Positions 7,926 to 54,601 of a stretch of 64,000 nucleotides of DNA are shown here, piece by piece. The DNA lies in IMG/VR virus record IMGVR_UViG_3300043620_000032, positions 3,069 through 67,068 of that record; one strand, written 5' to 3'. Made by a program: the position numbers and the translations under genes. This DNA is from a virus (Duplodnaviria; Caudoviricetes). A model generated the notes under the pieces. The model made no database searches. It was not told the DNA's origin and worked only from the letters and a program-made list of their open reading frames with translations. How positions within the stretch are numbered: the stretch's first letter is position 1; each line of letters starts with the position of its first letter.

Positions 7926-8159
7926 ATGACCCTCGGTGAATATCGCGTCGGCATCACATTCAATCCTAGCAAGGATGAGATGGTCGACAAGATCAAGCGT
8001 ATAGCAGCTGATCTGATCGATCTAATCAATGACATTCATAGTGACGATTCTGGTGGTGACGATTCCGAACTCAGGCGGCTCAAGGCGCTGGCCATGACCC
8101 ACGTCGAGGATGCCGCCATGTGGGCGGTCAAAGCTCAGACCAAACCACCATTTGCTTGA
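7926..8159 (+). CDS. Acb2/Tad1-like helical-hairpin protein (candidate anti-defence)
   Basis: GGAG RBS; FNPS...KIKRIAADLIDLI...RLKALAMTHVEDAAMWAVKA. Confidence 0.6.
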   Translation: MTLGEYRVGITFNPSKDEMVDKIKRIAADLIDLINDIHSDDSGGDDSELRRLKALAMTHVEDAAMWAVKAQTKPPFA

Positions 8160-8496
8160 GAAAATCATCAAGCTGGCGGTGCACAAACGCCTCAAGGAAG
8201 TTGGGGCGTTTCAACATTGGCCGGTACAGATGGGGATGGGCGATCGTTGCCTGGACTGCCACGGTTGCTATCAGGGCGTATATTTTGCGATCGAGACCAA
8301 GCGCCCTGGTGCTACGCCCACTAAAATTCAGTGGGTGACCATAGAAAATATACAAGCTGCCGGCGGATTAGTGTTTGTAATTGATTCCTTGGAGGCTGCC
8401 CGTGCCCTGTTCTCCGATCATCCACCCCCAATCGCAGAAATTACTCGTCCCCTACGACCGCGTTTGCGCGTTGTGGCCAGACGCGCAGACCATTAA
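8152..8496 (+). CDS. VRR-NUC domain nuclease
   Basis: TTG start; E-K...GMG-D-LDC...FAIETKRPG-TPT-IQ...I-AAGG-VFVID. Confidence 0.8.
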   Translation: MLEKIIKLAVHKRLKEVGAFQHWPVQMGMGDRCLDCHGCYQGVYFAIETKRPGATPTKIQWVTIENIQAAGGLVFVIDSLEAARALFSDHPPPIAEITRPLRPRLRVVARRADH

Positions 8497-9997: not shown

Positions 9998-10409
9998 ACC
10001 AGAGACAGAATATAAATTCGATGAACTAGTCAAAGCCTTCGTCGACACTCGCAGTGTGATCAAGGACATCGAAGAACGGCACAAGCAAGAACTCAAAAAC
10101 CCCCTTCGGCTCAAAGAACTTCTGACCGAACAGCTGCTGAAAAAGCTCAAGCAGACCGGCCAGGAGATGGCTCGCACCAAGTTCGGCACCGTGACTGCCG
10201 TGACACACGATACGGCGTCCTGCTCAGATCCTGACCTGTTCATACATTATGTCAGCGAGCATGATGCTTACGACCTTCTGGATCGTCGGCCTAACAAGAC
10301 CGCTTGCAAAGAATTTCTAAAAATTAACGGTGAGTTGCCGCCAGGAGTAAAACTCAACAGCAAACAGGACGTCAATGTCCGTAACATCAAGAAAGAGGAG
10401 AATCTCTAA
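9975..10409 (+). CDS. Conserved phage replication/recombination-associated protein
   Basis: Coiled-coil N-terminus, RTKFGTV, ELPPGV; position between helicase and SSB. Confidence 0.65.
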   Translation: MTNQELAEPETEYKFDELVKAFVDTRSVIKDIEERHKQELKNPLRLKELLTEQLLKKLKQTGQEMARTKFGTVTAVTHDTASCSDPDLFIHYVSEHDAYDLLDRRPNKTACKEFLKINGELPPGVKLNSKQDVNVRNIKKEENL

Positions 10410-11446
10410 TGGCTGCGGGTAACGGAAAAATTCAGGTTGCTGACAAATTCAAGCACCTTGATCCACACCACACGCTGTCGGACAGCATCCGCGCCGGCAA
10501 TTTCCATTCCATCAGAATGAAGGGTAAAATCTGGAAGCTGCAGACTGGCGGTGAACTCTATTCCTACATCCAGGCTGATGGTCACCCCCTGCCCTATCTT
10601 GATGTGGTGATCATCGGCATTCATCCCGGTCCGGGGAATTCTAGGGTATACTATCCCGGCACCTACCAGGAAGATTCCACCAATCCGCCGACCTGCGCTA
10701 GCTTGAATGGCGTGATCCCCGATGCCGGCGTGCCAATTCCGCAGAACAAGACCTGCAATGGCTGTAAGCACGATCAGTGGAAGCCCAACCGCGGTGGCAA
10801 GGACTGCAAGGAACACAAACGCATCGCAATCATACCGCTGCCCTACATGAAGACCAAACCGGCGCTGAAAGAGCCGATGAAGGAGCCGGTATTCTTCAAG
10901 GTGCCGCCAGCCAGCCTAAAGATCTGGAAGGCCTATACCGACGATCTGCAGGATCGCGATGCTCCCTACGCCGCCGTGATCACCAGAATCATGTTCAGTC
11001 CCGACAAGCTGTTTGAGATATCGTTCAAATATCTCAAGTCGCTCACCAATGCCGATTCCGAATTGATCCTGCCTCTGCTGGATTCTGCGGCAACCAAGAA
11101 CATCCTCGGCAGCATGCACGAGTACAAGCAGATCGGCGCTGTGCCGCCCATGGATACCCCCCAGGAGACTGGATTTGCCGCTGCTTTCGGCAAGCAGGCA
11201 GCTCCGATCGAAGCCACAGCCAACGTTCCAGCCAAGCGTGGTCCAGGACGGCCGAAAAAGCAGGTCGAGCCTGAAGAGACGGTCAAAGCAGCTGATGAGC
11301 AAGAGTCGCAAGAGTCGCAAGAGTCGCAAGAAGGTGGTGAAGCCGGGAGCGAAGACGAGGCCTCTTCGTTCCAGGAAGTTCAGCAGGACGATGAGCTTGA
11401 CAACATGATGACCGAGGTTTTGGGCAAAGCTGGCAAACCAATGTGA
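10409..11446 (+). CDS. Putative single-stranded DNA-binding protein
   Basis: GAGGAG RBS; beta-rich core with Cys (CNGC...CK), long acidic C-terminal tail with QES x3; synteny. Confidence 0.6.
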   Translation: MAAGNGKIQVADKFKHLDPHHTLSDSIRAGNFHSIRMKGKIWKLQTGGELYSYIQADGHPLPYLDVVIIGIHPGPGNSRVYYPGTYQEDSTNPPTCASLNGVIPDAGVPIPQNKTCNGCKHDQWKPNRGGKDCKEHKRIAIIPLPYMKTKPALKEPMKEPVFFKVPPASLKIWKAYTDDLQDRDAPYAAVITRIMFSPDKLFEISFKYLKSLTNADSELILPLLDSAATKNILGSMHEYKQIGAVPPMDTPQETGFAAAFGKQAAPIEATANVPAKRGPGRPKKQVEPEETVKAADEQESQESQESQEGGEAGSEDEASSFQEVQQDDELDNMMTEVLGKAGKPM

Positions 11447-11499
11447 GGTAGCGCGCCTGGCGAATTCAGGCATGAGACGGCAGATGCGGTGCGGCAACC

Positions 11500-25378: not shown

Positions 25379-25410
25379 GCCCTAGCAGAAAAATGCTAAG
25401 AAATGCTTAA
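25379..25410 (-). promoter_or_regulatory. CtrA-type late promoter for the ejection-protein operon
   Basis: TTAA-GCATTTC-TTAG, 11 nt, TAGGGC. Confidence 0.6.
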
Positions 25411-31953: not shown

Positions 31954-33741
31954 TTAGCACCTATGACCGTTGAAAACTGTAAAAAATGTACCGTCGATGG
32001 TCCAGGTCGAGGCTACACCATTAGCGTAAGTCCACACCTCATAATAATCAGTACCATTTGCAATATCGTCTATACTTATACCACCACCAGAAGAAGCCAA
32101 CGCACTTGCCGTTATCGATCCGCCTCGCTTTAACTCTGCACCATTCTTGTAAATTGCAACCCAGATATTACTTTGATCGGCTATACCAGAAGCATGACCT
32201 ACACGTGCATCAAGATGAATCAAGCCTGCGGGGGGCGTCCACTGACTTGTGGCAGGATTATAAAAATTACCTAGATCGTATTCTTCGGTTGGAAATGTCA
32301 CCTTAGTCCAGGTGATGTTAGCAAGACCGGTTTGATTGACGCCATTCTTGTATGCCCTAAACCCGACCTGAGAACTGGCACTACCTCCACCACCAACAGC
32401 GACCCACTGACTCGAATTGACGTCGGTGTAATAAATCCACAAAATGCCAGTGTCGCTCTCCCACCATAGCTGACCATTGGTCGGAGACGCAGGCGGCGTG
32501 TCCGAGATGGAAGTTGCGGCCCCACCGCCACCAGCTCCACCGGTCGGCCCGGTCGCTCCAGTCGCTCCTGCTCCACCTGCAGCACCAGTCGGTCCGGTTG
32601 CTGCCGCACCGGTGGATCCGGTTGGACCAAGTCCGCCTGCACCGCCAGCTGATCCGGTGTTGCCTGTCGGTCCTGTTGCGCCGACTCCACCCGGAGTGCC
32701 GGGTGTGCCAGCCGTACCCTGTAAGCCGGTGTTGCCTGTCGGGCCAGTGGCACCGACTCCACCTGGTGTACCAATCGTACCCTGTGAACCCGTCGGTCCA
32801 GTTGCACCTACTCCACCAGGCGTGCCGGGTGTCCCTTGTGTGCCTGTATTCCCTGTTGGACCCGTCGATCCTGCACCACCTGGCGTGCCGGGTGTTCCTT
32901 GTGTGCCCGTACTTCCCGTCGGACCTGTCGCTCCCACTCCTCCTGGCGCACCTACCGTTCCCTGCACGCCGGTCGCGCCGGTTGGACCCGTTGCAGCAAC
33001 CGCACCAGTCGGTCCAGTCGATCCCACACCAGACGTGCCTGGAGAACCTTGCGCGCCAGTTGGACCAAGCAAACCGGTCGGTCCGGTTGCCCCCACAACA
33101 CCAGCCGTTCCAGCCATCCCCGTGCTGCCAGTGGGACCAGTATCAGCCGTCGGACCCGTCGGTCCCAGCGGACCAGGCGTCCCCGGTAGTCCGCGATCGC
33201 CAGTCGGTCCGGTACCGAGTGACCCGGTAGGGCCGGTGGCTCCTGTCCCCGATGCTGTGCCAGGCGGTCCGGTTGGTCCTGTCCCTAACGGCCCGAGGCT
33301 ACCCGTCGGTCCGGTGCTGCCTTGTCCCGTTGCCCCGGTCGGACCGCTCACTCCGATCGAACCCGTCGGGCCCAAACCGCCGACAGAACCCGTTGGCCCG
33401 GTCGCGCCAGCACCGGTCGGGCCGCTGGATCCAGTTGGGCCAATCCCACCCGCGGGGCCGCCTACTCCCACACTTCCGGTCGGCCCAGTATTGCCCTGCG
33501 CACCGACCGTCCCGCCCGGACCAACATCACCGGTTGGTCCTGTTGGTCCACCAGGCAAACCAGGCGGCCCAGTTGCTCCAGTGGCACCAGTCGAAGTCGC
33601 GCTTCCTTCCGGACCTGTCGGTCCAGTCCCACCGGTGGTGCCGTCGTATCCCGTCGGCCCAGTGACTCCAGTCACGCCGGTATGTCCGGCAACCACGACC
33701 GGAAACGCTTCAACCGGAGCTGCAGGAATCACGCTCACCAT
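31954..33741 (-). CDS. Long collagen-like (GPT/GAT) fibre with C1q-like C-terminal head
   Basis: About 400 aa of G-X-T triplets; [12 protein letters not shown] module; FRAYK...TKVTF...YDLGNFYN. Confidence 0.85.
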
Positions 33742-33742
33742 G

Positions 33743-34522
33743 TCACAACTCTAGCACCATGAACTGAACATCAGCGACGAATGCACCAAGACTCGACGAC
33801 CCCGATCCTTGTGGATCTTGGATCGAGAGATCGAGCCAGCAGGACTGACCAGGCGGAAGCGGTGGATAACTGTCTGGATCAAACTGTCCGTTGAATGGCT
33901 GCGGGATTGTCCCCATGATCAAAAACGACTTCCTCTCGGTAGGAGACGCTACGATCAGTGTTTGCGGTACTCCCCATATCTTACCCATAAAAGCTGGACG
34001 GTCCTCCCACGGACCAGGAGCAGCCATCACCGAAGTTTCATTCCACCTCCCAGTGATGATAATATTTCGATTGGCTGCGAGCGTGTTGCCGCAGGTACCC
34101 GACACCATCAACAAAAGCCGACCACTAACTTCCGGCACGAACGTAAACTGGAATCCCATCGATACTTCTGCGCCAACATTATTGACGACCCACGGACCTT
34201 GATTGCCGGCATTGGCAGCCCAACTGTGTCCGAACGCCCCTGCCGGACCAGTCGGACCAATCCCACCCATGCTGCCAAACGATCCCGCCGGTCCGGTCGA
34301 ACCGGTCGGTCCAGTAAACGCACCAGCGCCTTCCGCACCCGTCGGCCCGGTGCCGAAAACGAACGGCCCCGTTGGCCCAACCGATCCAGTTGCCCCGGTA
34401 GTTGATACGCTACCCTCTGGTCCAGTTGCACCGGTGGGACCGCCAGACGGACCTGTCGGTCCGGCGAGCACGACAACTGGCCAAGCATCGACCGGTGCGG
34501 GAATGTTTGATTGATCGCTCAT
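33743..34522 (-). CDS. Short collagen-like fibre protein
   Basis: [12 protein letters not shown] then GPTG repeats; ends VLEL. Confidence 0.8.
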
Positions 34523-35235
34523 ATCTCCAAGACCACCCATTCGAGATCGTACAGAGTTACAAACGAACTAGCTGGATACACCTGCACAACCAGATCAAGC
34601 CACCAATCACGACCAACCAAATCTTCTGGCCCACGACCTGAATTGCCAAAATCATCAGTGTACTCGACGACAAATTCTGTACGCACATTCGCAGGCAGAT
34701 TACGAAATGACCTGTGTATAGTTTCTGGTCCAGCATAAAACTGAACGCCAAACGGTGGTGGCTCATAACCAACACGCTTAGCGTAGATGTCCATGCCCCC
34801 GCCGTTGACATTGTTGGAAAAAGTACCAGTAAAAAAACACTGCAGATAACCGGTCTTTACCGGAGTGACTTTGATCTGCAGGCCTTGGTAGCTAGCATAC
34901 TGATCCGGACCATGTGGACCCGGCGGACTGCCGGTTGCCCCTGTCCACATCGCATACGTCATGCCGGGGCCTTTCACCCCAGTCGGTCCAGCCATATCAT
35001 CACGCGCCAAACCGACAACATCTGGTCCAGTCATTCCAACCGATCCAGTTGGACCAAATACCGTAGATCCCGCTGGTCCGGTGTAAACTCGCCCCGTTGA
35101 TCCGGTTGGACCAGCAGCTCCCGCCAACGACAGCCCATCTGTAGGCCCGGTTGGCCCAAGCGGACCTTCCACGGCACCGGTCAGTCCGAGCACAATGTTC
35201 ACCGGCCAGGCGGCTATATCTGACGGCGCTTTCAT
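34519..35235 (-). CDS. Short collagen-like fibre protein
   Basis: [13 protein letters not shown] then GPTG repeats; ends VLEI. Confidence 0.8.
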
Positions 35236-35930
35236 ATCTCCAACATGTACCAATACAGATCGAACAAAGTCACCAACGCACCCCCCGTCGCTTGCACCGC
35301 AAGATCGTAATAGGTGTCCACCGCCAACAACGTATCCGGATCGTCATCAAGCACAGTGATCGAGAACTCGATCCGTTGATTGGCGGGAATATTGGCAAAC
35401 ACCTTGTCAATCGACACAGCTTTCCCCAACAACCCCTGACCGAATGTCGGTTGTGACGTTGACCGCTGAATATGCAGCCGCACGCCCCCAGCGACACTAC
35501 AAATGAAAGTGCCAGAAAAATGCACCAACCCACGGCCGCTATAGCCATAATCAAACTGAACGTTCAATCCTTGATGGCGGAAAAACGAATCAAACGGACC
35601 TGTTGGCGAAGTCCAAGCTCCATTGCGATTCTGGAACACACCACCCGGTCCATCCGATCCAGTCGGACCAGTTGCTGCCGGCCCGGTATGACCTTCACCT
35701 GCAGGGCCAGTCTCACCACGCGATCCAGTTGGTCCGGTGACACCTCCAACTCCAGTCGGCCCAGTCCCCGGAGCACCCGTTGGACCAGTCGCTCCCGTCG
35801 CTCCCGTGATTGCAACCGGACCCATTGGTCCAGTCGGTCCAGTCGGACCGCCAGCCGGACCTGTCGGCCCGCCGATCACCACTATCGGAAAGGCTTCAAC
35901 AGATGCAGGTATGGTCTTCTCGACCGACAT
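35232..35930 (-). CDS. Short collagen-like fibre protein
   Basis: [12 protein letters not shown] then GPTG repeats; ends MLEI. Confidence 0.8.
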
Positions 35931-35937
35931 CAGCTCC

Positions 35938-36066
35938 TCATGGGAACGGATGAATGATGAACGCAGCCGACACCACCACTGCCGACTCAACGACGTAAAC
36001 TCCCAGCAACATAGTCTCGTTAGAAGTGGTCTCGACCAGATACACAGCTGTCGGAGTAGCGATCAT
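35938..36066 (-). CDS. Small hydrophobic protein (42 aa)
   Basis: ATGA-coupled to tailspike stop; [14 protein letters not shown]... Confidence 0.4.
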
Positions 36067-38633
36067 GTCAGCCTCACTTTAGGGTCGAGGAAGTACGGCA
36101 CCGTGGCCCGTCCGATCCGTGGATAGGCGTAGATGTAGCCCTTCTGTTGCGGCTGTGGTGCAGTCAACCCCAACGTCTGCAGGAACCGACAGCCAGCACG
36201 CATGGTGGCGCTACCATCGCCCACCACACTGCCATCTATTGCCGTTGCATAACCTTGCGAGAACGGTCCACCCGAAAATCCAGCCGGCACTGGAAAAGCA
36301 AACGCTGACTGCCCAAAATTACTTGTAAATTGCAACAGAGTATTGGGGTTGCCACTGCCAGTCAGAGCCGCAAAAGCAAACGCCGCATTGGTCGGAAACA
36401 ATGACGAAATATCAAATCCACCAACGTTGGTGGTAGGATCGTGAGCAGCATTGCCGTTCCAAGGGCCGTTGTCGAGACGAACATGAAATTTCTTGTTGGG
36501 TAGATCAACGGCAATACACCAAGTATCATTCAACGCAATAGCAGCAAGAACACTCAGAGCACGATTACCAGCATACCAAACCGTTCCTTGCTGATCGATC
36601 GTTGCTCCATTGGCAGTGTAATTAGAAAATGCTGAGCCACCAGTAATGATCCCACACACACCAACGGGATAACCAAGATATTGTTCTATATGTGTGTTCT
36701 TGTGCTCGAAATAAAATTTGCCTGACGTCTGCGCAGCTGTTGATCGAATATAACCTACACCAGTTCCAGTCTGTGTGATGATCAAACCGCTACCACTCAA
36801 GCTTACTTGCGCATTCGAATCGACCGTATTCCAAATGGTGAGACCATCCACTGGCTCTCCAGCTCCAGTCGTACCAGCCGCCGTACAAAAAAATACCCGA
36901 CCAGGATTACTGGCGTGCTTGACCGGATCACCGACAACATAAGCTGTCGACCGTGCCACCGCCGACACCTGGCTGTCCCATGCCGACGTATCGGACGACA
37001 ATGCTCCCGCAGGAGATAAAACGCTGGCTTTGCTACCACGCCTGTATGAACCCTTCGGTGACGACGCCGACCCCAAATATTCGACCACCATGAACACTTC
37101 ATCGTTAGTCGGCACGCGCACATCGTTGGCGATGCCATACAGAGTGACAAACCGAGTGGCGTTTACAACATCGTTCCAGATCACAAGCGGCCAGGCATTG
37201 AACACAGTGTAAGGATTGACGACGGTAGCGTTTATCGCAAGCTGATGCGAAATCGGCACGTTGCCATCGACCGCACCGCCATTACGTACAATTTTGGTTG
37301 AAATTGTCTCTGCTCCTCCCGACGTATGGCGCTCATTGCGGTAGTTAGTGCCATCACTGGCACAACGCACCAGGTCGACCACCAACCCACAAAACATGTT
37401 GGTGTCGCCACTGAGAAACACCGACGTCAGATTGACAGGAAGTTTGCAATCCTTGAACAAAATGTAGCCAGAGACATTCCTAGCTACCAAGGCACCGCCC
37501 GCAGCAAGAAGGCTTAAATCACTGCCTTCGATCACAGCATTCGATACCCAATTTGCACCTGTAAATAATGCTTGGTTCGCACCAGCGAGCACACCTGTAA
37601 ATGCACAGTTCTCCATCCTGATGTTTGCTATACCAAGACGAATCATTTGCCCGCTAGCTGACAGATTGAACGTACAATCCTTGAACTCGAATTGCGTCCC
37701 ATTGACTGAGCTGACGTTGCTGATCCTGATTTGCAAACCGGTGTTGGTGTTGGTGATCGAGAACACACAGGTGTCAAAACGAACCTGATTGAGTGTGCCA
37801 CTACCAATATCGAACGAACCAGTCCCAGCATTGACGAACTGCAATCCATAGACATAAACAGGAGATTGCCCGGTAAAAAGTATGATCGTTGCTGAACCGG
37901 TCGCTGTAAACGTTGCCGTCGTACGCAAATCAGCCGGACCAAGTGGAAATGCTGCAGTGTGATCAACACAGAGCACCGAACCCATACCAAGACCAGAACC
38001 CTGCTGAATAATATTTATTGAACCAGTCGCCTGCGTCTCAGCATGATCATCCCCCACAAACGTGATCATATTAGCGTTGGCAACCCAGCTACCACTGTTG
38101 TTGAAAACAATCCCCAACCGTGGCACTGGAGCCGCCCAACGACTTGTAAAATTACCAACCGGACCGAGACAAGTCCAAGTGATGGAGCTTTCGACAGTCG
38201 TGCCACCCGGTGTCGTGTTCCAAGTAGGCTCTGCCGTAACAGAAAACTGTGAACCGGCAACCGAGCAGATAAAATAATGCGTCTTCGCAACGTTGGTGAT
38301 GATCACACCAAGAAAGACGTTGACTGTTTGAGCGATCCACGTACCTACATTGGCGAGATCACCATTGACTGACGGCTGCGCCGTGCATTCCTGCCACTTC
38401 GGACCAGCTGCCTCCGTGATAATCACACCCTTGGCAGGCGTAGCGCCCCACGTTGGCTCCGTTGCCAACGACGTCCCAGCTAAAATACAAACAAAACATC
38501 GCTCACTGTTGATGCTTGGTGCGGTACGCTGACGTACAATCTGTCCGACCGTATAAGCCGTGCTCGCCGTCCACATCGCAACGGCGCTATAAGCCACCGA
38601 GTCAACGTAAATGACTTTCTCGGTGTAAGCCAT
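36063..38633 (-). CDS. Tailspike/receptor-binding protein (CBM-like repeats, beta-helix, SPRY-like insert)
   Basis: WTASTAYTVG and AGTS-A-EPTW repeats; F-DC-F beta-helix repeats; SGKFYFE...IAVDL...FGQSAF. Confidence 0.8.
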   Translation of the reverse strand: MAYTEKVIYVDSVAYSAVAMWTASTAYTVGQIVRQRTAPSINSERCFVCILAGTSLATEPTWGATPAKGVIITEAAGPKWQECTAQPSVNGDLANVGTWIAQTVNVFLGVIITNVAKTHYFICSVAGSQFSVTAEPTWNTTPGGTTVESSITWTCLGPVGNFTSRWAAPVPRLGIVFNNSGSWVANANMITFVGDDHAETQATGSINIIQQGSGLGMGSVLCVDHTAAFPLGPADLRTTATFTATGSATIILFTGQSPVYVYGLQFVNAGTGSFDIGSGTLNQVRFDTCVFSITNTNTGLQIRISNVSSVNGTQFEFKDCTFNLSASGQMIRLGIANIRMENCAFTGVLAGANQALFTGANWVSNAVIEGSDLSLLAAGGALVARNVSGYILFKDCKLPVNLTSVFLSGDTNMFCGLVVDLVRCASDGTNYRNERHTSGGAETISTKIVRNGGAVDGNVPISHQLAINATVVNPYTVFNAWPLVIWNDVVNATRFVTLYGIANDVRVPTNDEVFMVVEYLGSASSPKGSYRRGSKASVLSPAGALSSDTSAWDSQVSAVARSTAYVVGDPVKHASNPGRVFFCTAAGTTGAGEPVDGLTIWNTVDSNAQVSLSGSGLIITQTGTGVGYIRSTAAQTSGKFYFEHKNTHIEQYLGYPVGVCGIITGGSAFSNYTANGATIDQQGTVWYAGNRALSVLAAIALNDTWCIAVDLPNKKFHVRLDNGPWNGNAAHDPTTNVGGFDISSLFPTNAAFAFAALTGSGNPNTLLQFTSNFGQSAFAFPVPAGFSGGPFSQGYATAIDGSVVGDGSATMRAGCRFLQTLGLTAPQPQQKGYIYAYPRIGRATVPYFLDPKVRLT

Positions 38634-39886
38634 TACTGCAGCGCCTTCACGCTGTAAGACCAGACACCGTTCACACCCCACATCATCAATGAGAACGCAT
38701 GTCCGTTGATGATATCGAACGCATCACCAACATTGGTCCCTACCGTCCAATTGGCGAACGCCGGCACGCCAGCTCCGGCCTGATTGAAGATCGTCAGAAT
38801 GCAGCTGCCACTGCCCACAGAGGGTGCGATAATAGTAAAATTACCAACGTTGTTTACAAACTGAATTGGTCCAAGACCAAAATCGATCTGGATATTGCCG
38901 TTGGGATACTGGTACGGCACCGCCACCACACCGCCGCTGAAGGCCTGTCCGGTAACACCTAGATGCATGACAGCACCAGCCACCGACGGACCAGTCGGTC
39001 CCTGCGGACCCGTCACCCCTACGATCTGCACCGCCTCGATCGAGAAGCTCGAATCCACCGCCACGATGGTGACGTTGGTGCCGCTACCGATAAGAACAAA
39101 AACTTCAAAATAATCGCCTGGCACCACCGGGATTGCCGGCGACGACACCGACGTCCAGATCTCGGAAAAATTGCCACCGCTGAACGCCTGCGCACTGCGG
39201 CCTGGCCAATTGAGCTGCGAACCGTTTTTGTAGAACGCAACGTAATAGGAAGCATTGGTCGGCGTGTTGGTCATGCGCAGGCAGCAATTGAGCCGCACGT
39301 AACTCACGCCTGACGGCACCGTCATCCGAGTATTGTTGCTGGCGGAATTGTGCCAATTACCGAGATCGTAAGCGTCAGCCCCATCCCAACCGATCGCGGT
39401 CGTCGAACTCAAATTGAGGCTGACAGCATCGGCCGCCTTCTTCGCCATGCAGCCAGAAAACGTCGGTACGTTGCCAGCTGGCCCGGTTGGACCTGGCGGT
39501 CCGCCGTAATCGCCAGTCGGCCCAGTCGCGCCGGTATTGGTCGCAAATCCAGCTGTCCCGGTCGGTCCGGTGACACCGGGAGTGCCGGTCGGACCACCCG
39601 GAGGACCAGGAAGCCCAACAGGCCCCTCCATCCCAGTCGGACCAATAATTGACTCACCCTGCGGCCCGGTAACTCCGATCGAGCCAGTCGGCCCAGTGAC
39701 AATGCTGCCGGGTCCAGTCGGTCCGGTAGCACGCGCCCCAGTCGGCCCAGTGAAAGAAACCCCTGACGATCCTGTTGACCCGGTCGCGCCGGTCAGTCCG
39801 CTCGATGGCCCAGTCGGACCGGTAGCACCAAAAATTGGGACGACCGGCCATGCTGCAACTGGGGCGTCATCACTGTTGCTTCTCAC
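38633..39886 (-). CDS. Collagen-like fibre protein with C1q-like domain
   Basis: [14 protein letters not shown] repeats, AYDLGNWH...RMTVPSG. Confidence 0.8.
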
Positions 39887-42073: not shown

Positions 42074-42105
42074 AGCCTAGGACGCAATCCTTAAGGAATG
42101 GTTAA
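42074..42105 (-). promoter_or_regulatory. CtrA-type late promoter for the adaptor/tail operon
   Basis: TTAA-CCATTCC-TTAA, 11 nt, TAGGCT. Confidence 0.75.
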
Positions 42106-45662: not shown

Positions 45663-45694
45663 AAGTTAGGCGTTAATTCTTAAGAAATGGTTAA
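45663..45694 (-). promoter_or_regulatory. CtrA-type late promoter for the head operon
   Basis: TTAA-CCATTTC-TTAA, 11 nt, TAACTT. Confidence 0.75.
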
Positions 45695-47205: not shown

Positions 47206-47328
47206 TTACTCCACCTCCCAACGCCCCGTCACATAGCCAAAAGCTGCCAGCAAAAGGAGCAGTACAATGACGATCGCCACCGTGAGCATGACGCGATGAC
47301 CAAGGCTCATGTCCCGAAGATTGCGCAT
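47206..47328 (-). CDS. Single-TM peptide (40 aa, holin candidate)
   Basis: Start overlaps endolysin stop; VMLTVAIVIVLLLLLAAFGYV. Confidence 0.6.
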   Translation of the reverse strand: MRNLRDMSLGHRVMLTVAIVIVLLLLLAAFGYVTGRWEVE

Positions 47329-48878
47329 CACGCTACATCCGGTTCACTCTGATCCATGTAATCCTGCACCTCCTGAAGCATCACGTCTGCGTCTTTCTTC
47401 AATTCGCTCTCGTGTCTGATTATAGGTCCGTAGTGATTGCACAAATTTCGCAGCGTAAGCCCGCAACTTTCGGCAGAGAACGCAGGCTGGTTCTTGCACA
47501 GATCCTGGAACTCTCTTCCTCTCCCGGATCCATAGCTCGCCCAATCCGACGATGAACATGACACTCCCTCATCAAATGCATCCAGATAACCCTGCGCCAT
47601 CCCTGCCAGATATTCATCCATCAGATCGTCGAATTCAGGTTTGTTGGACCCGGCCGCATTGTAGCTGGTCTGGAAGGCTCCCGCCTCACAAGTGTTGGAA
47701 TCAGTATTGGAAGCGGACTGATCCCTACCACAGCAATGCTTGCCCGAACTCTCCCGCATGCCATGGCCCAGCATCAGCGCATAGAGATGCCGCAACACGT
47801 CGGGGCCAGCAGACCCATTTGTCATCCCCATCTGCTCGAAATCCTTGCGATAGAGATACAGCGCATCCTTGTCGCTGTTGGTCTGCGCCCTCGACATCTT
47901 GACCATGGCGGGATGATCGGCGTTCAGCTTCCGATAAGACTGCGCGAATGCCAGCGCCATGCCCTGCATCCAGCCGGTCGGCGCTTTGCCGCGGTCTTTC
48001 CAAGAATAGGATGCAATCTTTGAATTTTTGGCGATCTCCCTGATGTCGGCCTGCTCGTCCGCCGTCAATGCGCCGGGAGGCGGTGGTAGCGCCGGCGTCT
48101 CGTTATCGAGCGCGTTCCAGGTGTCCTGACCGACGATGCCATCGACCATGAGCCCGCGCGAACGCTGATAGTCCCGCACTGCACCATCGGTGCCAGAACC
48201 GAAATCTCCGTCCTCCACCAACTCACAACCATCCAACTGATTGTTGAGATCGGTCTGTAGCTCTTGCACATAAGGCCCCTCATCGCCCTTGCGCAGCATC
48301 GGCTTGGTCTCGGGTGGGAACGGCTCCGGCTCTGGCTCAGGTCCAGGCGGCAACGGCGTGATCGCCTGCCCCGACACCGATTCCGCAATTGCCTGGCAGA
48401 TTACATCAAACTTGCTCTCATAAATATCAGCATCCGCTTGGCTGTCGACAAAACAGACCTCAATCAAGATCGACGGCTTGGTCGTGTTGTTGAGAAAATA
48501 CAGATCAGTACGCTTTTTCGGACCGCGGTCGATCAGACCAGACACCCCACTGATAGCCTCAGCCACTGCATCTGCCAGCTTGCTCTGCGTGACGTACAAA
48601 CATTCAGTCCCCATCGGCTTCGATGTGGTCTGGTAAGCATTGAAATGCACGGAGACGTCGAGATCGCGCTGCTGCGAATTGTGGTATTTTACAATCGTAT
48701 TGAGGTTCGTACTCTGATCACGACTCGTATCGTCGTGAAACGTCTTGACGCCAACACCGGCAGCTTTCAACAAATCAGCAACCGCATTCACCACCAAGCG
48801 GGCCTCATCGACCTCGTCGAGATAGCCGCTGGCACCGCGGATGTACTTCCCGTGACCGCTAGAGATGACGATGTTCAT
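47328..48878 (-). CDS. Endolysin: Amidase_3, PG_binding_1 and C-terminal lysozyme/SLT-like domain
   Basis: SSGHG, SVHFNA, ILIEVCFVD; DGDFG...DGIVG..TW; MRESSG...GAFQ. Confidence 0.9.
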   Translation of the reverse strand: MNIVISSGHGKYIRGASGYLDEVDEARLVVNAVADLLKAAGVGVKTFHDDTSRDQSTNLNTIVKYHNSQQRDLDVSVHFNAYQTTSKPMGTECLYVTQSKLADAVAEAISGVSGLIDRGPKKRTDLYFLNNTTKPSILIEVCFVDSQADADIYESKFDVICQAIAESVSGQAITPLPPGPEPEPEPFPPETKPMLRKGDEGPYVQELQTDLNNQLDGCELVEDGDFGSGTDGAVRDYQRSRGLMVDGIVGQDTWNALDNETPALPPPPGALTADEQADIREIAKNSKIASYSWKDRGKAPTGWMQGMALAFAQSYRKLNADHPAMVKMSRAQTNSDKDALYLYRKDFEQMGMTNGSAGPDVLRHLYALMLGHGMRESSGKHCCGRDQSASNTDSNTCEAGAFQTSYNAAGSNKPEFDDLMDEYLAGMAQGYLDAFDEGVSCSSSDWASYGSGRGREFQDLCKNQPAFSAESCGLTLRNLCNHYGPIIRHESELKKDADVMLQEVQDYMDQSEPDVA

Positions 48879-49036
48879 TTTTGCTTCCTCACCTTGGCCT
48901 GACCGCGACGGTCTTCCGCCTTGTCCTGCGCCGTACGTTCATATTGCTTGAGTGACATGCCAAGACGTTTGGCACCCCGCTTATCCTCAGCAATATCCCG
49001 CTTCGACCCCTCGTACTTCCGCCGTTTGGAGGCCAT
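48875..49036 (-). CDS. Small highly basic protein (53 aa)
   Basis: MASKRRKYEGSKRDIAEDKRGAK. Confidence 0.65.
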   Translation of the reverse strand: MASKRRKYEGSKRDIAEDKRGAKRLGMSLKQYERTAQDKAEDRRGQAKVRKQK

Positions 49037-49715
49037 CGGCCTTCTCCGTCGCTCGATAGTTGGTAAAAAGCGTGGAATCATGATCAGCACGATACCACCA
49101 AACCGGAAAATCAGGATCTATCTGCTCCAGGCGTGCAAGCGTGTTCACTTCCCACGAAACATTCTTGGTCTTGCCCAGCCAGCGCACGTACTCGCTTTTC
49201 ATCGCATCATTGAACGGTTCGATGAACCTGCGCGGCACCACCATCACCCCGCCGCAGAACCGCCAACACGGGTGGTTGTCGTCATATTTGAATTCGTCTT
49301 TTCCCCAACATCCAGGGATCGCGATCGCCTGCTCGCTGTCAGCACGCTTCAAAAAGGCATCAATGATCGCGCCGGTCACGCCAGGAACGTGAAAAATTCC
49401 GTAGTCGATCCAAACGAACACATCCGAGAATGGATCCATATTCGAAGCAATCTCCAACCACTCGGTTTTTTGCGCCTGGATGATGTGATAAGCGAGCGAA
49501 TTTTTCTGCGGATTATCCGAAACCGACCAAGAAAAATCCGATGGATCGAAATGCTCACTCAAATACCGGGACAACCAACAATGCTCCAAATCGCCTTTGG
49601 CAAACATCACTCGACCATCAATATGATGAAGCAGTGGCTCTCCCAACCGATCGTATTCCTGCTCCGAGCGCGGATGACCCGGTATTGGCACAAAAGCACT
49701 GACCACCGTGATCAT
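48987..49715 (-). CDS. HtrL/WlaTC-like glycosyltransferase-family protein
   Basis: Y..I...K..W...A...DPF...FVWIDYGI; WRFCGG. Confidence 0.7.
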   Translation of the reverse strand: MITVVSAFVPIPGHPRSEQEYDRLGEPLLHHIDGRVMFAKGDLEHCWLSRYLSEHFDPSDFSWSVSDNPQKNSLAYHIIQAQKTEWLEIASNMDPFSDVFVWIDYGIFHVPGVTGAIIDAFLKRADSEQAIAIPGCWGKDEFKYDDNHPCWRFCGGVMVVPRRFIEPFNDAMKSEYVRWLGKTKNVSWEVNTLARLEQIDPDFPVWWYRADHDSTLFTNYRATEKADGLQTAEVRGVEAGYC

Positions 49716-51688
49716 AACGCGTCCTCGTAAATGAACGAGAGCACCTCATCGAGCCGCATGGTCGCAAGCCATGCCTCACAATCCCTAACTCCGTAAGAAA
49801 TCATGATTTCATCATCTTCGATAAAATACGCCATCCCTGCAGCAAACTCGATCTGCCGATCATGAAAAAAGAACGGTAACGAAATGCGATCTACCCGTCC
49901 ATCAGCATGAAAAATTACAAACCGATGCTGATAATAACGATTTGGCCGGCCGGGAATCGTACCGGCCTCATGCACCAATGCCAGCCAGCAGTCCGTTCGG
50001 TCATCTACTTTTACAACCTGTGACCCACCACTAATATGGCTGACATCAAAACCAGGATCAGACTGAAAAATCACATCACCCTTGGAGTTGACCAATGTCC
50101 CCAACCGATAAACGAACCGCAACTCGTCGCCGTTCACCCAAGGCATCCAGTTCTTCTCATGAACTCGATGCGGTGGTAAGATTTGTTGCCAATTGTCTCC
50201 GTAATGCAGATGTTGTTGCCCAAGAGACAGTGGTGCGAGAACTTGTTCGCACCATCCTTCATGGGTCAGTTCTCGAACGGTCGAGAGTGTCCAGAATTCT
50301 TTACCACGTCGAAAAAGCCTTGAATCCTCGAATCCCCGCACCAGCTGAAACTTCGGCTCCGGAAAATTCTCCGGAAGATTTATCTCTCGCCAATCGCTAA
50401 TTCCAGAACCAAGAAAATTACGAGTACGAATAGGATGATCACCAACACTTGCGCCATCGCTGGCCAAAATCCGATACTGCCCCTCTGGCGTAATCGTGTA
50501 ATTAACCGTTCGAACCAAGATGAGCGGCTGTCCGCCATGACTGGTCACCGATGGATTGCAAGCGACATAACCGTCAGGTGGAATAAACTTGACTCGCTCT
50601 GACTTGAATGACGGCACTCCCTCAGCCAGCGGCTCGAGGTACCAAAATTGATTGGACCGCGCCTGCGCATTGCCGGCGAGCGCCAGCTTGTCGCATTCCT
50701 TGGCTCCGCGAGAACGTTTGCGCGCGTCATAATAGGCGCAGATCGCGAACTCTTCCTTCAATCCTTGTGCTGCCTGCTTGTTGACGAACAACGAGTCATT
50801 GGGCTGCGACAGATGCAACCCCGCTTCCGAAAACAGTAGACTGGTATGGTTCGCTCCACGCTCGCGAAATAGCCGACTAAGATCATGGAGCGTTTCGAGT
50901 CGCTGGGGTCGCATGTGATAGGCTTGCAACAGCGCCCACACAGCATTGGGAATGTCACCCAAAGCAGAACAGCAATTGGCGTATCGAAGCTGTGCATACC
51001 AACGCTCCTCATCGAACCCGCCAAGCCCTACGCGAATTTTGTAGTGTTCAGCTGCCTTCGACCACTCACCAGTATCGAAATACGACTGCGCCAGGTAAAA
51101 ATGATAGCGTTCGATCAATCCCGGACGCACTTCATTAGCGATCGCCTGCTCCAGCATCGCAATATCACGAGAACACTTGTCAGGCCGATTAGCGCCGTCA
51201 GCGTGATCCACAAAATCAGCACCAGTGATAGCACCGGATGTTGGGACATCCAGATACTCATGCGTCACTCCCATGTAATTGCCGGTGGCCTTGCGATTGA
51301 GTAGACGTCGGTTCCAGTAGTTCAGATTGCCGCCGACCTGCAGCATGTCGTACGACAGACCACCATTCAATTTACTGGTCCAGAGCGGATTCTCAACCCG
51401 CAACTCCATGTCGGCATCGGCCAGCAACAGATAATCCCAATCGAGTTTGCTTTCACGCGCACGCTGCAGAGCAACATTGCGCGCTTGGGAAAAGTTCTCA
51501 AACGAAGCGTAGTGCAGCTCGAACGGTTTACGCGCCTGTGCGAACAACCGTGATATCTTCTCTGGAGTGCGATCCTCCGACCCGGTGTCAACCACCACCG
51601 CATAGTCGATGTGAGGTAACAGACTTTTTACGCAGCGTTCAATCCGTGCCTCTTCATTTTTGACGATCGCATTCCAGGCGAGTTTCAT
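49712..51688 (-). CDS. GT2 glycosyltransferase with TPR and five-bladed beta-propeller (GH130/GT108-like) domain
   Basis: AIVKNEE, VVVDTGSED, LADAD, GVTHEY; RYHFYLAQSYFD TPR; NPSV, FEDSRL, EKNWMP, IEFAAG, SYGVRD; true start ATG 51688. Confidence 0.88.
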   Translation of the reverse strand: MKLAWNAIVKNEEARIERCVKSLLPHIDYAVVVDTGSEDRTPEKISRLFAQARKPFELHYASFENFSQARNVALQRARESKLDWDYLLLADADMELRVENPLWTSKLNGGLSYDMLQVGGNLNYWNRRLLNRKATGNYMGVTHEYLDVPTSGAITGADFVDHADGANRPDKCSRDIAMLEQAIANEVRPGLIERYHFYLAQSYFDTGEWSKAAEHYKIRVGLGGFDEERWYAQLRYANCCSALGDIPNAVWALLQAYHMRPQRLETLHDLSRLFRERGANHTSLLFSEAGLHLSQPNDSLFVNKQAAQGLKEEFAICAYYDARKRSRGAKECDKLALAGNAQARSNQFWYLEPLAEGVPSFKSERVKFIPPDGYVACNPSVTSHGGQPLILVRTVNYTITPEGQYRILASDGASVGDHPIRTRNFLGSGISDWREINLPENFPEPKFQLVRGFEDSRLFRRGKEFWTLSTVRELTHEGWCEQVLAPLSLGQQHLHYGDNWQQILPPHRVHEKNWMPWVNGDELRFVYRLGTLVNSKGDVIFQSDPGFDVSHISGGSQVVKVDDRTDCWLALVHEAGTIPGRPNRYYQHRFVIFHADGRVDRISLPFFFHDRQIEFAAGMAYFIEDDEIMISYGVRDCEAWLATMRLDEVLSFIYEDAL

Positions 51689-51927
51689 GCTGGACCAGTC
51701 GGACCTGTAGACGAAACATCCATGCTGAAACCCGTCATGCCTGATGGAGCCGTCGGACCTGTCGTTCCTGTGGTAGCCAAAACAGTCGAAGCATCCAGCA
51801 CGTCGTACTCTGTCCCTGGAGCAGCTGATTGCGCGAGAATCGCAATCGCTGCTTCGCGGGTATTGGCTTGAACCGTTATGATCCCGATCGGACCTTTCAG
51901 TCGCTGCTTGATGTAAAACGTCGTCAT
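51685..51927 (-). CDS. Small protein with Thr-Gly tail (paralog B)
   Basis: AGGAGG RBS; TREAAI...SAAPG; TTGTTGPTAPSGMTG...STGPTGPA. Confidence 0.75.
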   Translation of the reverse strand: MTTFYIKQRLKGPIGIITVQANTREAAIAILAQSAAPGTEYDVLDASTVLATTGTTGPTAPSGMTGFSMDVSSTGPTGPA

Positions 51928-51953
51928 GGCCGTCCTCCTTTATAAAGTTCCTG

Positions 51954-52181
51954 TTATGAAGTTCCTGTAGGTCCAGACGCACCGGTGGTGCCGGTGGTGC
52001 CGGTGGTGCCGGTGGTGCCGGTGGTGCCAACACCCGCCTCCTGAATGGTGAAGACCTCGACCTTGTCACCCGGAGCTGCCGCGTTCACGATCTGGATAAT
52101 GGCTTCTTCACGGGTTGGCGCAGTGACGATCTCGATCACATCCGGCAGGGTTCTGCGAACTCTGAGATGATATTCAGGCAT
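51954..52181 (-). CDS. Small protein with Thr-Gly tail (paralog A)
   Basis: TREEAI...AAAPG; (TTG)5ASGPTGTS. Confidence 0.75.
   Translation of the reverse strand: MPEYHLRVRRTLPDVIEIVTAPTREEAIIQIVNAAAPGDKVEVFTIQEAGVGTTGTTGTTGTTGTTGASGPTGTS
51982..52028. repeat. Five perfect 9-bp tandem units CCGGTGGTG
   Basis: Encodes (GTT)5 on the minus strand. Confidence 0.95.
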
Positions 52182-52208: not shown

Positions 52209-54551
52209 TCACCCCGGCCCGCCACCGATCGGCGGCGGTCGCATGCCAGGCTGCATCGGTCGCCGCTGCATCCCAACCACGTTTCCCGGCAAAGCGGGCG
52301 CATTCGACATCGGCGTGGGCTGATTGCCACGCGCCTGGTTCGCCGCCTCGCCCATATCGGCCGGCCGTGGTGGGCCACCGATCCCAGGCGGGCCGGGTGG
52401 GGCACCAGGTGGACCCGCTCCTGGTCCGCTAGGAGGAGCACCCATCCCTGGCGAGCCACCCGGCGCTTCCTCGCCTGGCATTGCGGCGTGCGAGGCTAGG
52501 AACCCGGCGGTGAGTTCCGAAGCGATCTTCTGAACGCCCTGCTCGACACCGGCCTGAATGCCCTTGTCGACCTGCTCGTTGATCGCCTGGACCTGCTTGT
52601 TCTTCTCCTGCTTTTCCTGTTTCTTGGCGAGTTCTTCATCCGACGGCACCACCTCCTCACCGTCGAGCCCGATGGTCTGCGATACACTGCGCAGCACCGT
52701 CCCGCGGCCCTTCATCCCCATGATCTCGAGGTCGACCGGATTGTTGGTGTGCTGCAGGAATTCAAGTTGCCGCTGGCGCTGGGTCTCACGCTGGACCGCC
52801 ACGTTCACGCCCTGGACGTAAATATCCTCTTCCCCAGTCAGTGCGCCGGTCGTATCCGTCAGCAATACCAGATCCGATAATTGCTGCAGCGCCACCTCGA
52901 AAATATCGCGGTCGATATTGGCAGCGACTGTTTGCAAGATTTTGCTGGCATTGCCCATCAGCATGGCGAGGCCTGACGCCGTGCGCCCCGCCCCACCGGA
53001 AGCCTGCCCGCCGATATATTTCGGGATCGCACTGACGTCGTCGCTCAGGTCGACAAATGCTTTGAACACCGTGAGCAGCTCCTGAGCATTGCTCTGCGGC
53101 TGAAAAAACTCGATCGGTGGCTTGGCATTGTTGCCGACGGGATCGCTGACCACATGCCAGCGTTTCCACGGATATATCTCGTCGACATTATCTTCCGGCC
53201 GGCAACGCTCAACGTTGACCACCACCTGCGGCCCGGAAGCGATGCTCATATTGTTGACCAACGCCCGCAAAGTGGCGTTGGCGACGTCTTGAATGTCGGA
53301 AATCAGGTCAGTGAGCGAATTGCCGATCGGCGTTCCCGGCACTTTCTCGAACGAGGTGACAAAATAATTATGCCGCGCCCGCGGCGAAGGCGACAGATTT
53401 GCTTTGATGATGTGGCTGCCGATACAATAGGCGTCGACATGGTAGTCCCGGATCGGATCGGAAATTCCCGGCATGCCGTAGTCTTGCAACACCTCGCCCC
53501 AGACGTTGCCGTGAAACTCCATCTGGGTGATCAAGCCGCTGCGGTTCCAGGCCGGATTCTCCCGGCTCTCGAGCACGGCTCTCTCTGCATCCGTGGTATC
53601 CCAATTATCGTACAGCCCGCCGCGGCCGAACTCGGTCAGCACAGCGCGGACCTCATCCTGGTTGAAACCCGGCAGGTCGAGCATGTCGTTGAGTTCAGCC
53701 CGCGTCAGGCCGGATTTCTCGATCACGTCGGCGTTGGCGATATCGGAGACGCCAGGTGTCCACCAGATGTCGAACGGCGACACCCGGTCCCACATCATGG
53801 TCGGGATCTGCTTGACCAGCGGTTTGCCGTCCTGCCACTGGATCTCAGGCACGATCTTGACGGTCGGGCCCTTGAGGCAGGCGAACGGAAAAATCGGTAG
53901 ATCCACAAGAAATTCAGCCAAAGCGTGATAGAAAAACCCGTTCCTCAGAAACTCCTCGATCTTGTCCTCGGACGTCTTGGCCTGCTTCTGCGCCAGCTTG
54001 CGCGCCGCCTCTTCCGCCGACTCCATCAGCGCCATGCGGCGGGTACGGGCGGCATCCTCCGGCGGCGGCTGCCCGGTGGCCTGCTGCACCATCTGCTGCT
54101 CGTGTTGCATCAGCGCGTCGATCTTCTGGATAATCTCAGGCGGAACGTCGGGATCCGCCGGCGCGCGCACCGCCCACGGCCGGTCGCTGCCAAGGTAGAC
54201 ATCCCGCAGCAAAGAGCTGGCGGCACGGCACTTTTGGGCGGTCAAGCGGGCGTAAATCTCCGACCCGCCGAACTTTTTCACGTCCTGCAGCTTGGTCGGA
54301 TTGTACTGGCCGTTGAACGCCCGCATGGCCTCGAGCAGCCGGTTCGACCAGCCCGATGCGGTATTGCGGTGATTGCGGAAGATCTCGAACTGGCCCCGGA
54401 TGTAGCCCACGAGCTGGGGTGGAGCGGGCTGAGCGGGCGTGTTGGCCGCCGCCCGATCCTGCTGCTGCTTCAACAGCTGCGCCTCCAGCATCGCCGGCGG
54501 CACCACCTGCAAGACGTTCACAGCACCCAAGGGATTATCAGCCATGCCCAC
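52209..54551 (-). CDS. Portal protein (P22-like) with Pro/Gly-rich tail
   Basis: 780 aa; RVSPFDIWW, RALVNNMSIASGPQ, RTASGLAMLM; start 54551 or 54545. Confidence 0.88.
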   Translation of the reverse strand: MGMADNPLGAVNVLQVVPPAMLEAQLLKQQQDRAAANTPAQPAPPQLVGYIRGQFEIFRNHRNTASGWSNRLLEAMRAFNGQYNPTKLQDVKKFGGSEIYARLTAQKCRAASSLLRDVYLGSDRPWAVRAPADPDVPPEIIQKIDALMQHEQQMVQQATGQPPPEDAARTRRMALMESAEEAARKLAQKQAKTSEDKIEEFLRNGFFYHALAEFLVDLPIFPFACLKGPTVKIVPEIQWQDGKPLVKQIPTMMWDRVSPFDIWWTPGVSDIANADVIEKSGLTRAELNDMLDLPGFNQDEVRAVLTEFGRGGLYDNWDTTDAERAVLESRENPAWNRSGLITQMEFHGNVWGEVLQDYGMPGISDPIRDYHVDAYCIGSHIIKANLSPSPRARHNYFVTSFEKVPGTPIGNSLTDLISDIQDVANATLRALVNNMSIASGPQVVVNVERCRPEDNVDEIYPWKRWHVVSDPVGNNAKPPIEFFQPQSNAQELLTVFKAFVDLSDDVSAIPKYIGGQASGGAGRTASGLAMLMGNASKILQTVAANIDRDIFEVALQQLSDLVLLTDTTGALTGEEDIYVQGVNVAVQRETQRQRQLEFLQHTNNPVDLEIMGMKGRGTVLRSVSQTIGLDGEEVVPSDEELAKKQEKQEKNKQVQAINEQVDKGIQAGVEQGVQKIASELTAGFLASHAAMPGEEAPGGSPGMGAPPSGPGAGPPGAPPGPPGIGGPPRPADMGEAANQARGNQPTPMSNAPALPGNVVGMQRRPMQPGMRPPPIGGGPG

Positions 54552-54552
54552 A

Positions 54553-54601
54553 GGGTTAACAGGCGTTTCTTAAGAAATTCTTAAGACTTGGCCGCTACAT
54601 C
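54553..54601. promoter_or_regulatory. Bidirectional CtrA-type promoter between portal and terS
   Basis: TTAA-GAAATTC-TTAA (54570-54584); TA exactly 11 nt away on each side (GCTACATC on +, TAACCC on -). Confidence 0.75.

Follow-up and report, generated by a model that had tools for sequence, protein, structure and literature searches.

A putative O-glycosylation cassette beside the portal gene of an uncultured soil-type phage and its recurrent linkage to collagen-like genes

Why would a phage place two predicted glycosyltransferases among its late genes, immediately behind the portal? The question is raised by IMG/VR virus record IMGVR_UViG_3300043620_000032, which derives from an uncultured soil-type phage, measures 67,068 bp and is rated 100% complete. 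The stretch that we analysed, called the window throughout, comprises 64,000 nucleotides (positions 3,069 to 67,068 of the record) and covers nearly all of it. On the minus strand of the window, the portal gene is followed by genes for two small proteins with Thr- and Gly-rich tails (sm1 and sm2), a fusion protein that begins with a family 2 glycosyltransferase domain (the GT fusion, where GT stands for glycosyltransferase), a GT-A-fold protein of 242 amino acids (aa) and an endolysin, all densely packed. Our analysis indicates that the four genes between portal and endolysin probably constitute a phage-encoded cassette for cytoplasmic protein O-glycosylation, acting on Thr-rich G-X-Y segments of the phage's own proteins. 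The order of the genes, the folds of the encoded domains, their conserved catalytic motifs and a recurrent linkage to genes for collagen-like proteins with G-X-T repeats carry this conclusion.

Two enzymes and two small proteins with Thr-rich tails

The set occupies the following window positions, the GT fusion being given as a whole and by domain (TPR, tetratricopeptide repeat).

51954..52181, minus strand: sm1, 75 aa; a ~50-residue alpha/beta core, then a G-X-Y tail; candidate acceptor
51685..51927, minus strand: sm2, 80 aa; paralogous to sm1, its Thr/Gly/Pro tail degenerate
49712..51688, minus strand: GT fusion, 658 aa; GT2, TPR and five-bladed propeller
51179..51688, minus strand: GT fusion residues 1 to ~170; GT2 (GT-A) catalytic domain
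50639..51178, minus strand: GT fusion residues ~171–350; TPR-like helical domain
49712..50638, minus strand: GT fusion residues ~351–658; five-bladed beta-propeller of GH130/GT108-like fold
48987..49715, minus strand: GT-A-fold glycosyltransferase-like protein, 242 aa; called 'HtrL-like' in the initial annotation

The portal, the two Thr-Gly-tail proteins, the GT2-TPR-propeller enzyme and the second enzyme were all found where the initial annotation had placed them, and on the same strand. Two ATGA overlaps join the genes of the set, one between the sm2 stop and the GT fusion start (51688), the other between the GT fusion stop and the ATG of the 242-aa gene. An open reading frame (ORF) of 785 aa beginning at 52069 is a spurious upstream extension of the GT fusion, whose real ATG is the one at 51688 that overlaps the sm2 stop.

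The GT2 domain scored 35.2 bits against PF00535 (cut-off 23.3) over residues 9–96, and its DxD motif, D91-A-D93, is invariant across 32 homologues, down to 45% identity. An AlphaFold model of the GT fusion, built on the homologue alignment, has a predicted local distance difference test score (pLDDT) of 91 and is all-helical over residues ~171–350. This region gave weak TPR_2/TPR_14 matches in Pfam and matched designed TPR proteins in the PDB; we presume that it binds the acceptor protein. By Foldseek, the best PDB matches of residues 1 to ~350 were SunS and ThuS (7MSN/7MSK/7MSP, E 4e-14 to 3e-12), with template modelling (TM) scores, normalised to the target, of 0.56–0.66, whereas the next-best GT2 structures, TarS and RmlT, fitted poorly (E 1e-9, TM about 0.2). 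By sequence, the best PDB match of the GT2 domain, with ~95 residues aligned at E 1.7e-6, was GmaR (PDB 22ao), the flagellin O-linked N-acetylglucosamine (O-GlcNAc) transferase of Listeria monocytogenes. The sole NCBIfam match of the GT fusion was to the SunS family, TIGR04195, over residues 7–91 (E 1e-4); at 21.3 bits against a cut-off of 350, and with no Cys-containing glycocin precursor adjacent, membership of that family was rejected. From the SunS/ThuS fold, the GmaR match and the sub-cut-off TIGR04195 match together, we conclude that the N-terminal half resembles the GT2-TPR enzymes that glycosylate peptides and proteins and is not a SunS-family member. More than 900 full-length relatives of the fusion exist, many on contigs of 60–69 kb. 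Looking for shorter GT2-TPR relatives that stand alone brought up proteins of Streptomyces and Micromonospora (36% identity, with 95% of the region covered), with no Clostridioides difficile entry among the best 120 listed.

Foldseek matched the propeller to GH130 phosphorylases (4UDK, 5B0P, 1VKD, 6Q4X and others) and to the Leishmania GT108 enzymes MPT-2 and MPT-4, with E values of 4e-9 to 5e-7 and TM scores normalised to the target of 0.45–0.57. Searched by tblastn, it matched phage genes annotated 'beta-mannosyltransferase'. Its invariant residues include E454-D455-x-R457, R393, K512, H573, R584 and H588-R589. Pfam yielded no match to the GH130 family model PF04041 at E <= 0.01, and a profile of 21 C-terminal domains found no GH130 chain in the PDB, its only hit being a chance match to a haloacid dehalogenase (HAD) hydrolase. 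These searches rule out GH130 assignment by sequence, so the relationship is one of fold only. Enzymes of the GH130/GT108 fold can act as beta-mannosyltransferases with GDP-mannose (GDP-Man) or mannose 1-phosphate (Man-1-P) (PMC12814180). Both domain calls of the initial annotation, a SunS-type GT2-TPR half (Pfam, fold and NCBIfam) and a GH130/GT108-like propeller (fold), are borne out.

The model of the 242-aa protein (pLDDT 90) has a GT-A fold, with a conserved acidic motif, the invariant W102-x-D104. Its best structural match is PBCV-1 A64R (2P6W; Foldseek E 1.5e-5, VIA-align Z 12.2), a glycosyltransferase that takes part in glycosylating the major capsid protein, and the tie to the window protein is this structural match. 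VIA-align placed GT34, GT6 and GT8 enzymes behind A64R, with Z 11.1 for XXT1 and 10.0 for both BoGT6a and LARGE1. The protein had been described as HtrL/WlaTC-like, and this description does not stand. Its match to HtrL_YibB (PF09612) reached 17.8 bits against a cut-off of 24.1, over 44 residues around WIDxG; hhalign of the 26-sequence family against a protein that does carry the domain (L159:10832-11680, PF09612, E 1e-37) gave a probability of 5.7% over 36 columns; and no Pfam domain occurs in any of the 120 listed of its 577 relatives. A true HtrL_YibB gene directly follows the fusion gene in an Acidobacteriaceae metagenome-assembled genome.

The small proteins are paralogous (32% identity, E 3e-7) and have no match in Pfam, PHROGs or NCBIfam; in the ESM Atlas, sm1 had no feature match and uninformative structural neighbours (TM around 0.5). 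The sm1 tail consists of eight uninterrupted G-X-Y triplets, namely GTT five times, GAS, GPT and GTS, and that of sm2 reads TTGTTGPTAPSGMTG...STGPTGPA, with interrupted triplets only. Homologues occupy the same slot in relatives and share a ~45-residue core with a consensus like '..TREEAI.Q.....A.PGE.IEV', flanked C-terminally, N-terminally or on both sides by runs of GTT, GPT or GAT. Neither sm1 nor sm2 contains Cys, a signal peptide, a hydrophobic segment or a leader-like N-terminus, and both enzymes are free of hydrophobic or membrane segments. The absence of hydrophobic segments from all four proteins points to action in the cytoplasm, where virions assemble.

Two further features of the small proteins deserve mention. 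The five GTT triplets of sm1 (window 51975–52019, minus strand) arise from a perfect tandem repeat, (GGCACCACC)5, and tail length and composition vary even in a relative of 96–97% identity (L002); the repeat and this variation suggest that the tail may change length by slippage. A 455-aa protein of another relative (L023:3145-4512) contains two sm1/sm2 cores followed by a large, unrelated C-terminal domain. Because the cores are fused there to a large domain, one might speculate that the core is a docking or reusable attachment module.

Linkage to collagen-like genes in phages and bacteria

The proposed main acceptors lie elsewhere in the window.

31954..39886, minus strand: tail module with five collagen-like G-X-T fibre genes; candidate main acceptors

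The fibre genes, at 38633–39886, 35232–35990, 34519–35253, 33743–34540 and 31954–33741, together encode 193 triplets in runs of at least four, with 8–118 triplets each and Thr favoured at Y. We counted 110 G.T tripeptides (Gly, any residue, Thr) in the five proteins, or 130 when Ser was included. Their density, 6.2 per 100 aa, is 14-fold that in ten other late proteins (0.44). The initial annotation had the number of fibres right and slightly overstated their sites as 'well over a hundred'.

If the enzymes act on such repeats, the genes might be expected to travel together, and we examined 70 viral loci gathered via the enzyme and 80 gathered via the portal. The order portal, variable genes, GT and GT-A gene is kept down to 38–45% GT identity. 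Among portal-anchored loci, the 61 that have 3.5 kb or more of downstream sequence all contain the GT; it was not found in the other 13, where 2.5 kb or less is available downstream. Of the 66 unique loci, at least 52 have a Thr-rich G-X-Y ORF in the gap that separates portal from GT; in the distant half of the clade, this gap contains two or three collagen-like proteins of 190–300 aa with 20–45 triplets each. The variable slot sometimes also houses a sulfotransferase, an HNH endonuclease or an S-adenosylmethionine (SAM) methyltransferase. The sulfotransferase (PF13469, E 2e-12), at L033:5091-5897 and at the equivalent position in L043 and L063, separates the portal from the collagen-like genes; its presence suggests sulfated glycans or sulfated proteins in these three relatives.

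Because every portal relative retrieved with enough flanking sequence carries the GT, no negative set could be drawn from within the clade, and Rhizobium phages served as the contrast. RHph_TM27A, TM27B, TM29 and TM3_14A are the nearest cultured relatives, with 55% identity in the portal and 63% in the major capsid protein; megablast of the region against cultured phages returned zero matches. RHph_TM27A and its kin have the order portal, three small ORFs, scaffold, capsid, and contain neither enzyme and zero G-X-T collagen-like ORFs in 60.9 kb. The whole block that lies between portal and head genes, made up of the small TG proteins, both enzymes and the endolysin, is missing from RHph_TM27A (L229/L230, MN988461.1), whose record annotates an integrase and attL/attR. 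The initial annotation's guess of an alphaproteobacterial host fits these phages as nearest cultured relatives and the many homologues in Mesorhizobium.

Outside this clade, the components recur in other arrangements. In a separate phage group (L059-L067), a collagen-like gene is directly followed by separate propeller, GT-A-like and GT2 genes; a 352-aa protein in one member, L061, was considered as a GT2-TPR homologue and not counted, its BLASTP E value being 0.11. Synechococcus phage DSL-LC02 (L228, OR032571.1: 44755-51199), a cultured cyanomyovirus, carries a propeller homologue divergent from three GTQ/GTT collagen-like fibre genes; the GH130-like gene is annotated 'beta-mannosyltransferase' and is accompanied by two FkbM methyltransferase genes. 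This phage offers a tractable system for probing possible fibre glycosylation. In Tunturiibacter phage Tunturi_5, 3.7 kb separate a GT2-TPR homologue from a GPT-collagen tail fibre.

The same pairing is seen in bacteria. Among 80 bacterial loci with a fusion homologue (30–46% identity), 56 have a collagen-like ORF within the flank, the carriers including many Mesorhizobium isolates, Acidobacteriaceae, Burkholderiales and Chloroflexia. In Mesorhizobium, the neighbour is a divergent giant collagen-like gene of 100–590 triplets, more than 90% of them G-X-T. The enzyme there has 1,260 aa, with an extra Gly_transf_sug domain; next come a second GT2-TPR and a GT1-methyltransferase. In two genomes of 7–8 Mb, every (GxT)6 match fell within the neighbouring collagen gene (193 of 193 and 279 of 279), and a reversed control pattern gave zero matches in both. 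The arrangement of giant collagen-like gene and divergent enzyme is seen in Mesorhizobium and other bacteria among the loci L147-L226, examples being L178:1064-5461(-) and 7986-11774(+) and L200:2681-6595(-). The co-occurrence of the GT with Thr-rich collagen-like genes that the initial annotation anticipated is seen in the phage clade, in other phage groups and in bacterial genomes, and the sister lineage that has no GT has no such collagen either.

Proposed pathway and competing explanations

Several characterised systems resemble parts of this locus. SgtA of C. difficile is a soluble, 358-aa protein in which a GT-A domain (GT2/WcaA-like) is followed by TPRs; its gene adjoins bclA3, a G-P-T collagen-like gene, and it has proven, metal-dependent activity in placing beta-O-GlcNAc on Thr (or Ser) of the collagen repeats, with beta-GlcNAc on Thr of the GPT repeats of BclA3 (PMC7157674). 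The window GT likewise adjoins genes for G-X-T proteins, with sm1 and sm2 upstream, collagen genes in relatives and giant collagens in bacteria. Compared by architecture and gene context, SgtA differs in that it has no propeller and no partner GT-A enzyme, and is bacterial and spore-associated. The GH130 beta-mannoside phosphorylases and the GT108 mannosyltransferase/phosphorylases of Leishmania have the five-bladed propeller, and some use GDP-Man or Man-1-P to form beta-mannosides (PMC12814180); the window domain has an acidic EDxR motif, but is fused to GT2-TPR, and its acceptor would presumably be a glycoprotein instead of a free mannoside. SunS and ThuS (PDB 7MSN, 7MSK; TIGR04195) share the GT-A and helical TPR-like fold and glycosylate a ribosomal peptide. 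SunS, however, modifies Cys in a disulfide-stapled peptide, whereas sm1, sm2 and the fibres offer Thr and no Cys. GmaR also joins GT2 to TPR, and its O-glycosylation of a filament protein, on Ser/Thr, takes place in the cytoplasm; unlike the window enzyme, it doubles as an anti-repressor and has no propeller.

Glycosylation of mycobacteriophage virions is reportedly described by Freeman et al. (2023). This system and PBCV-1 A64R resemble the window in having virus-encoded glycosyltransferases in or near structural genes, with virion proteins as acceptors. They differ in enzyme families, hosts and acceptors: in place of collagen-like repeats, the acceptors are capsid and tail-tube termini or the major capsid protein. 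In the literature we found accounts of glycosylated BclA-type spore collagens, of a mimivirus collagen and of chlorovirus and mycobacteriophage virion glycosylation; among them is none in which a phage's enzymes glycosylate its collagen-like proteins, and none of a GT2-TPR-propeller fusion. Collagen-repeat O-glycosylation and phage virion glycosylation are both known in kind, and the cassette, if it works as proposed, would be a variant of both.

In the pathway that we infer, with its acceptors, its sugars, the order of its steps and the presence of sm1 and sm2 in the virion, the portal unit would be transcribed late. The two ATGA overlaps would couple translation and so hold constant the ratio in which sm1, sm2, the GT2-TPR-propeller enzyme and the GT-A enzyme are made. 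The TPR-like domain would dock on G-X-T repeats, and the GT2 domain, DxD-containing, metal-dependent and inverting, would begin the glycan on Thr hydroxyls with a nucleotide sugar as donor, a priming step that would parallel SgtA on BclA3 and the role of GmaR on flagellin. The propeller would attach a hexose in beta linkage, mannose supplied by GDP-Man or Man-1-P being the likeliest, and the separate GT-A enzyme a further sugar. The acceptors would be the five tail fibres, through their 110 G.T sites, and the small proteins sm1 and sm2, through their TG tails; given the position of their genes, sm1 and sm2 are possibly small head or neck decoration proteins. The initial annotation had likewise proposed O-glycosylation, and of that proposal the domain calls, the link to Thr-rich collagen and the guess at the host are supported, while the HtrL/WlaTC membership falls.

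Several observations weigh against O-glycosylation of the phage's own proteins. Phage fibre modules often contain collagen-like repeats, and the adjacency of such repeats to the GT in other phages could be partly chance; this weakens the evidence from adjacency in phages, not that from bacteria. The podophage clade has inherited a single arrangement, so its synteny represents one evolutionary event, not 60. By the filters used, 14 of the 66 phage gaps and 24 of the 80 bacterial loci, many of them short contigs, lack a collagen-like ORF, and some large phages (L055-57, L071) encode GT2-TPR-only homologues away from any collagen-like gene. The propeller, with no sequence-level GH130 match, could be a phosphorylase or hydrolase instead, and sm1 and sm2, with no known fold or family, may be neither substrates nor virion parts. 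Finally, the PHROGs category of the GT2-TPR family is 'moron / host takeover'.

The competing explanations fit worse, because the proteins have no membrane segments, the genes are core late genes and the enzymes track collagen-like genes in unrelated genomes. The PHROGs category bears on the first of them, in which the enzymes would remodel a host surface glycan, such as lipopolysaccharide (LPS) O-antigen, exopolysaccharide or capsule, for superinfection exclusion or progeny release, and the link to collagen would be incidental. PHROGs further labels the family a beta-1,4-glycosyltransferase, the Joint Genome Institute (JGI) name of relatives is 'glycosyltransferase involved in cell wall biosynthesis', the cassette adjoins the endolysin gene, and HtrL/YibB genes occur in LPS core clusters. 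Yet both enzymes are soluble, and the N-terminal half is closer to the peptide glycosyltransferases SunS and ThuS than to the polysaccharide GT2 enzymes TarS and RmlT. The cassette, moreover, belongs to the core late gene set beside the portal and is not a lysogeny-associated moron, and the linkage to G-X-T collagens recurs in unrelated contexts, with the GT-less relative also devoid of such collagens. On this evidence, remodelling of a host glycan is unlikely.

Still less likely, in our view, is that the enzymes glycosylate sm1 and sm2 only, in a glycocin-like pairing of the SunS type that would yield secreted or regulatory glycopeptides and leave the fibres unmodified. SunS and ThuS are the top structural matches and the SunS family the sole NCBIfam match, and the small genes lie directly upstream, are translationally coupled and keep their Thr-Gly tails in this slot across relatives. 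The SunS score of 21 bits, however, compares with a cut-off of 350, the small proteins have neither Cys nor a leader, and no export or protease genes lie nearby. Several clade members (L013, L030, L051) have no gene between portal and GT and yet retain the enzymes and collagen fibres, and the bacterial homologues pair with giant collagens, not with small peptides.

Phage glycosyltransferases that glucosylate DNA are well known. A role in glycosylating phage DNA bases, or in making a free oligosaccharide or storage glycan during infection, as GH130/GT108 enzymes do with free beta-mannans (PMC12814180), is nevertheless highly improbable here: the ten replication-region proteins scanned included neither a hydroxymethylase nor a nucleotide-sugar enzyme, TPR domains typically bind proteins, the genes sit in a putative late structural operon and the collagen linkage extends to bacteria.

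Protein O-glycosylation on Thr-rich repeats may reach beyond this phage. We propose, with some reserve, that the three-module set of GT2-TPR primer, propeller and small GT-A enzyme could be a widespread, undescribed O-glycan system for Thr in G-X-T repeats. It might be common to soil alphaproteobacterial phages, which would use it on tail fibres and portal-proximal TG-tail decoration proteins, and to bacteria such as Mesorhizobium, which would use it on giant surface collagens; the glycosylated Thr might be a counterpart of hydroxyproline or a surface identity code. Records of glycosylated prokaryotic collagen-like proteins are confined to a few spore proteins (BclA, BclA3), and those of phage virion glycosylation come mainly from mycobacteriophages. 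Should the cassette work as proposed, many soil phages would bear collagen fibres coated with sugars, with consequences for host recognition, virion stability in soil and immune or lectin recognition. It would also suggest how Mesorhizobium and other bacteria might modify their giant G-X-T collagens. The GT2-TPR-propeller fusion would also be a possible tool for glycosylating recombinant bacterial collagens.

Transcription unit and flanking genes

The initial annotation had the cassette co-transcribed with the portal. The features that frame it are the following.

54570..54584, minus strand: TTAA-N7-TTAA motif, just upstream of the portal
52209..54551, minus strand: portal, first gene of the unit; PF23899 SU10_portal E 6e-8, phrog_332 E 6e-55
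47328..48878, minus strand: endolysin, Amidase_3, PG_binding_1 and an extra C-terminal domain; context, outside the glycosylation set

Portal and sm1, and sm1 and sm2, are separated by 26–27 nt, with a strong ribosome-binding site in each gap (GGGAG for sm1, AAGGAGG for sm2). Within the intergenic gaps of the block, we found no terminator-like or sigma-70-like site above the level of shuffled sequence. The motif TTAA-N7-TTAR occurs at four sites in the window (seven matches over both strands, against 0.8 matches expected), at 25396–25410, 42091–42105, 45680–45694 and 54570–54584, each preceding a late gene block. The last two flank the block of portal, glycosylation and lysis genes, and there is none between 45694 and 54570. 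Transcription of the cassette with the portal as a single unit is plausible, given the gaps clear of terminator- or promoter-like sites and the bracketing motifs.

Two neighbouring proteins have unusual C-terminal regions. The 240-residue C-terminal domain of the endolysin matches only phrog_33367, a family of unknown function. The portal ends in a Pro/Gly/Ala-rich, low-complexity tail of ~100 residues (window 52209–52500), …GPGAGPPGAPPGPPGIGGPPRP…, which is unusual among portals; in the portal of RHph_TM27A, the alignable part ends near residue 640.

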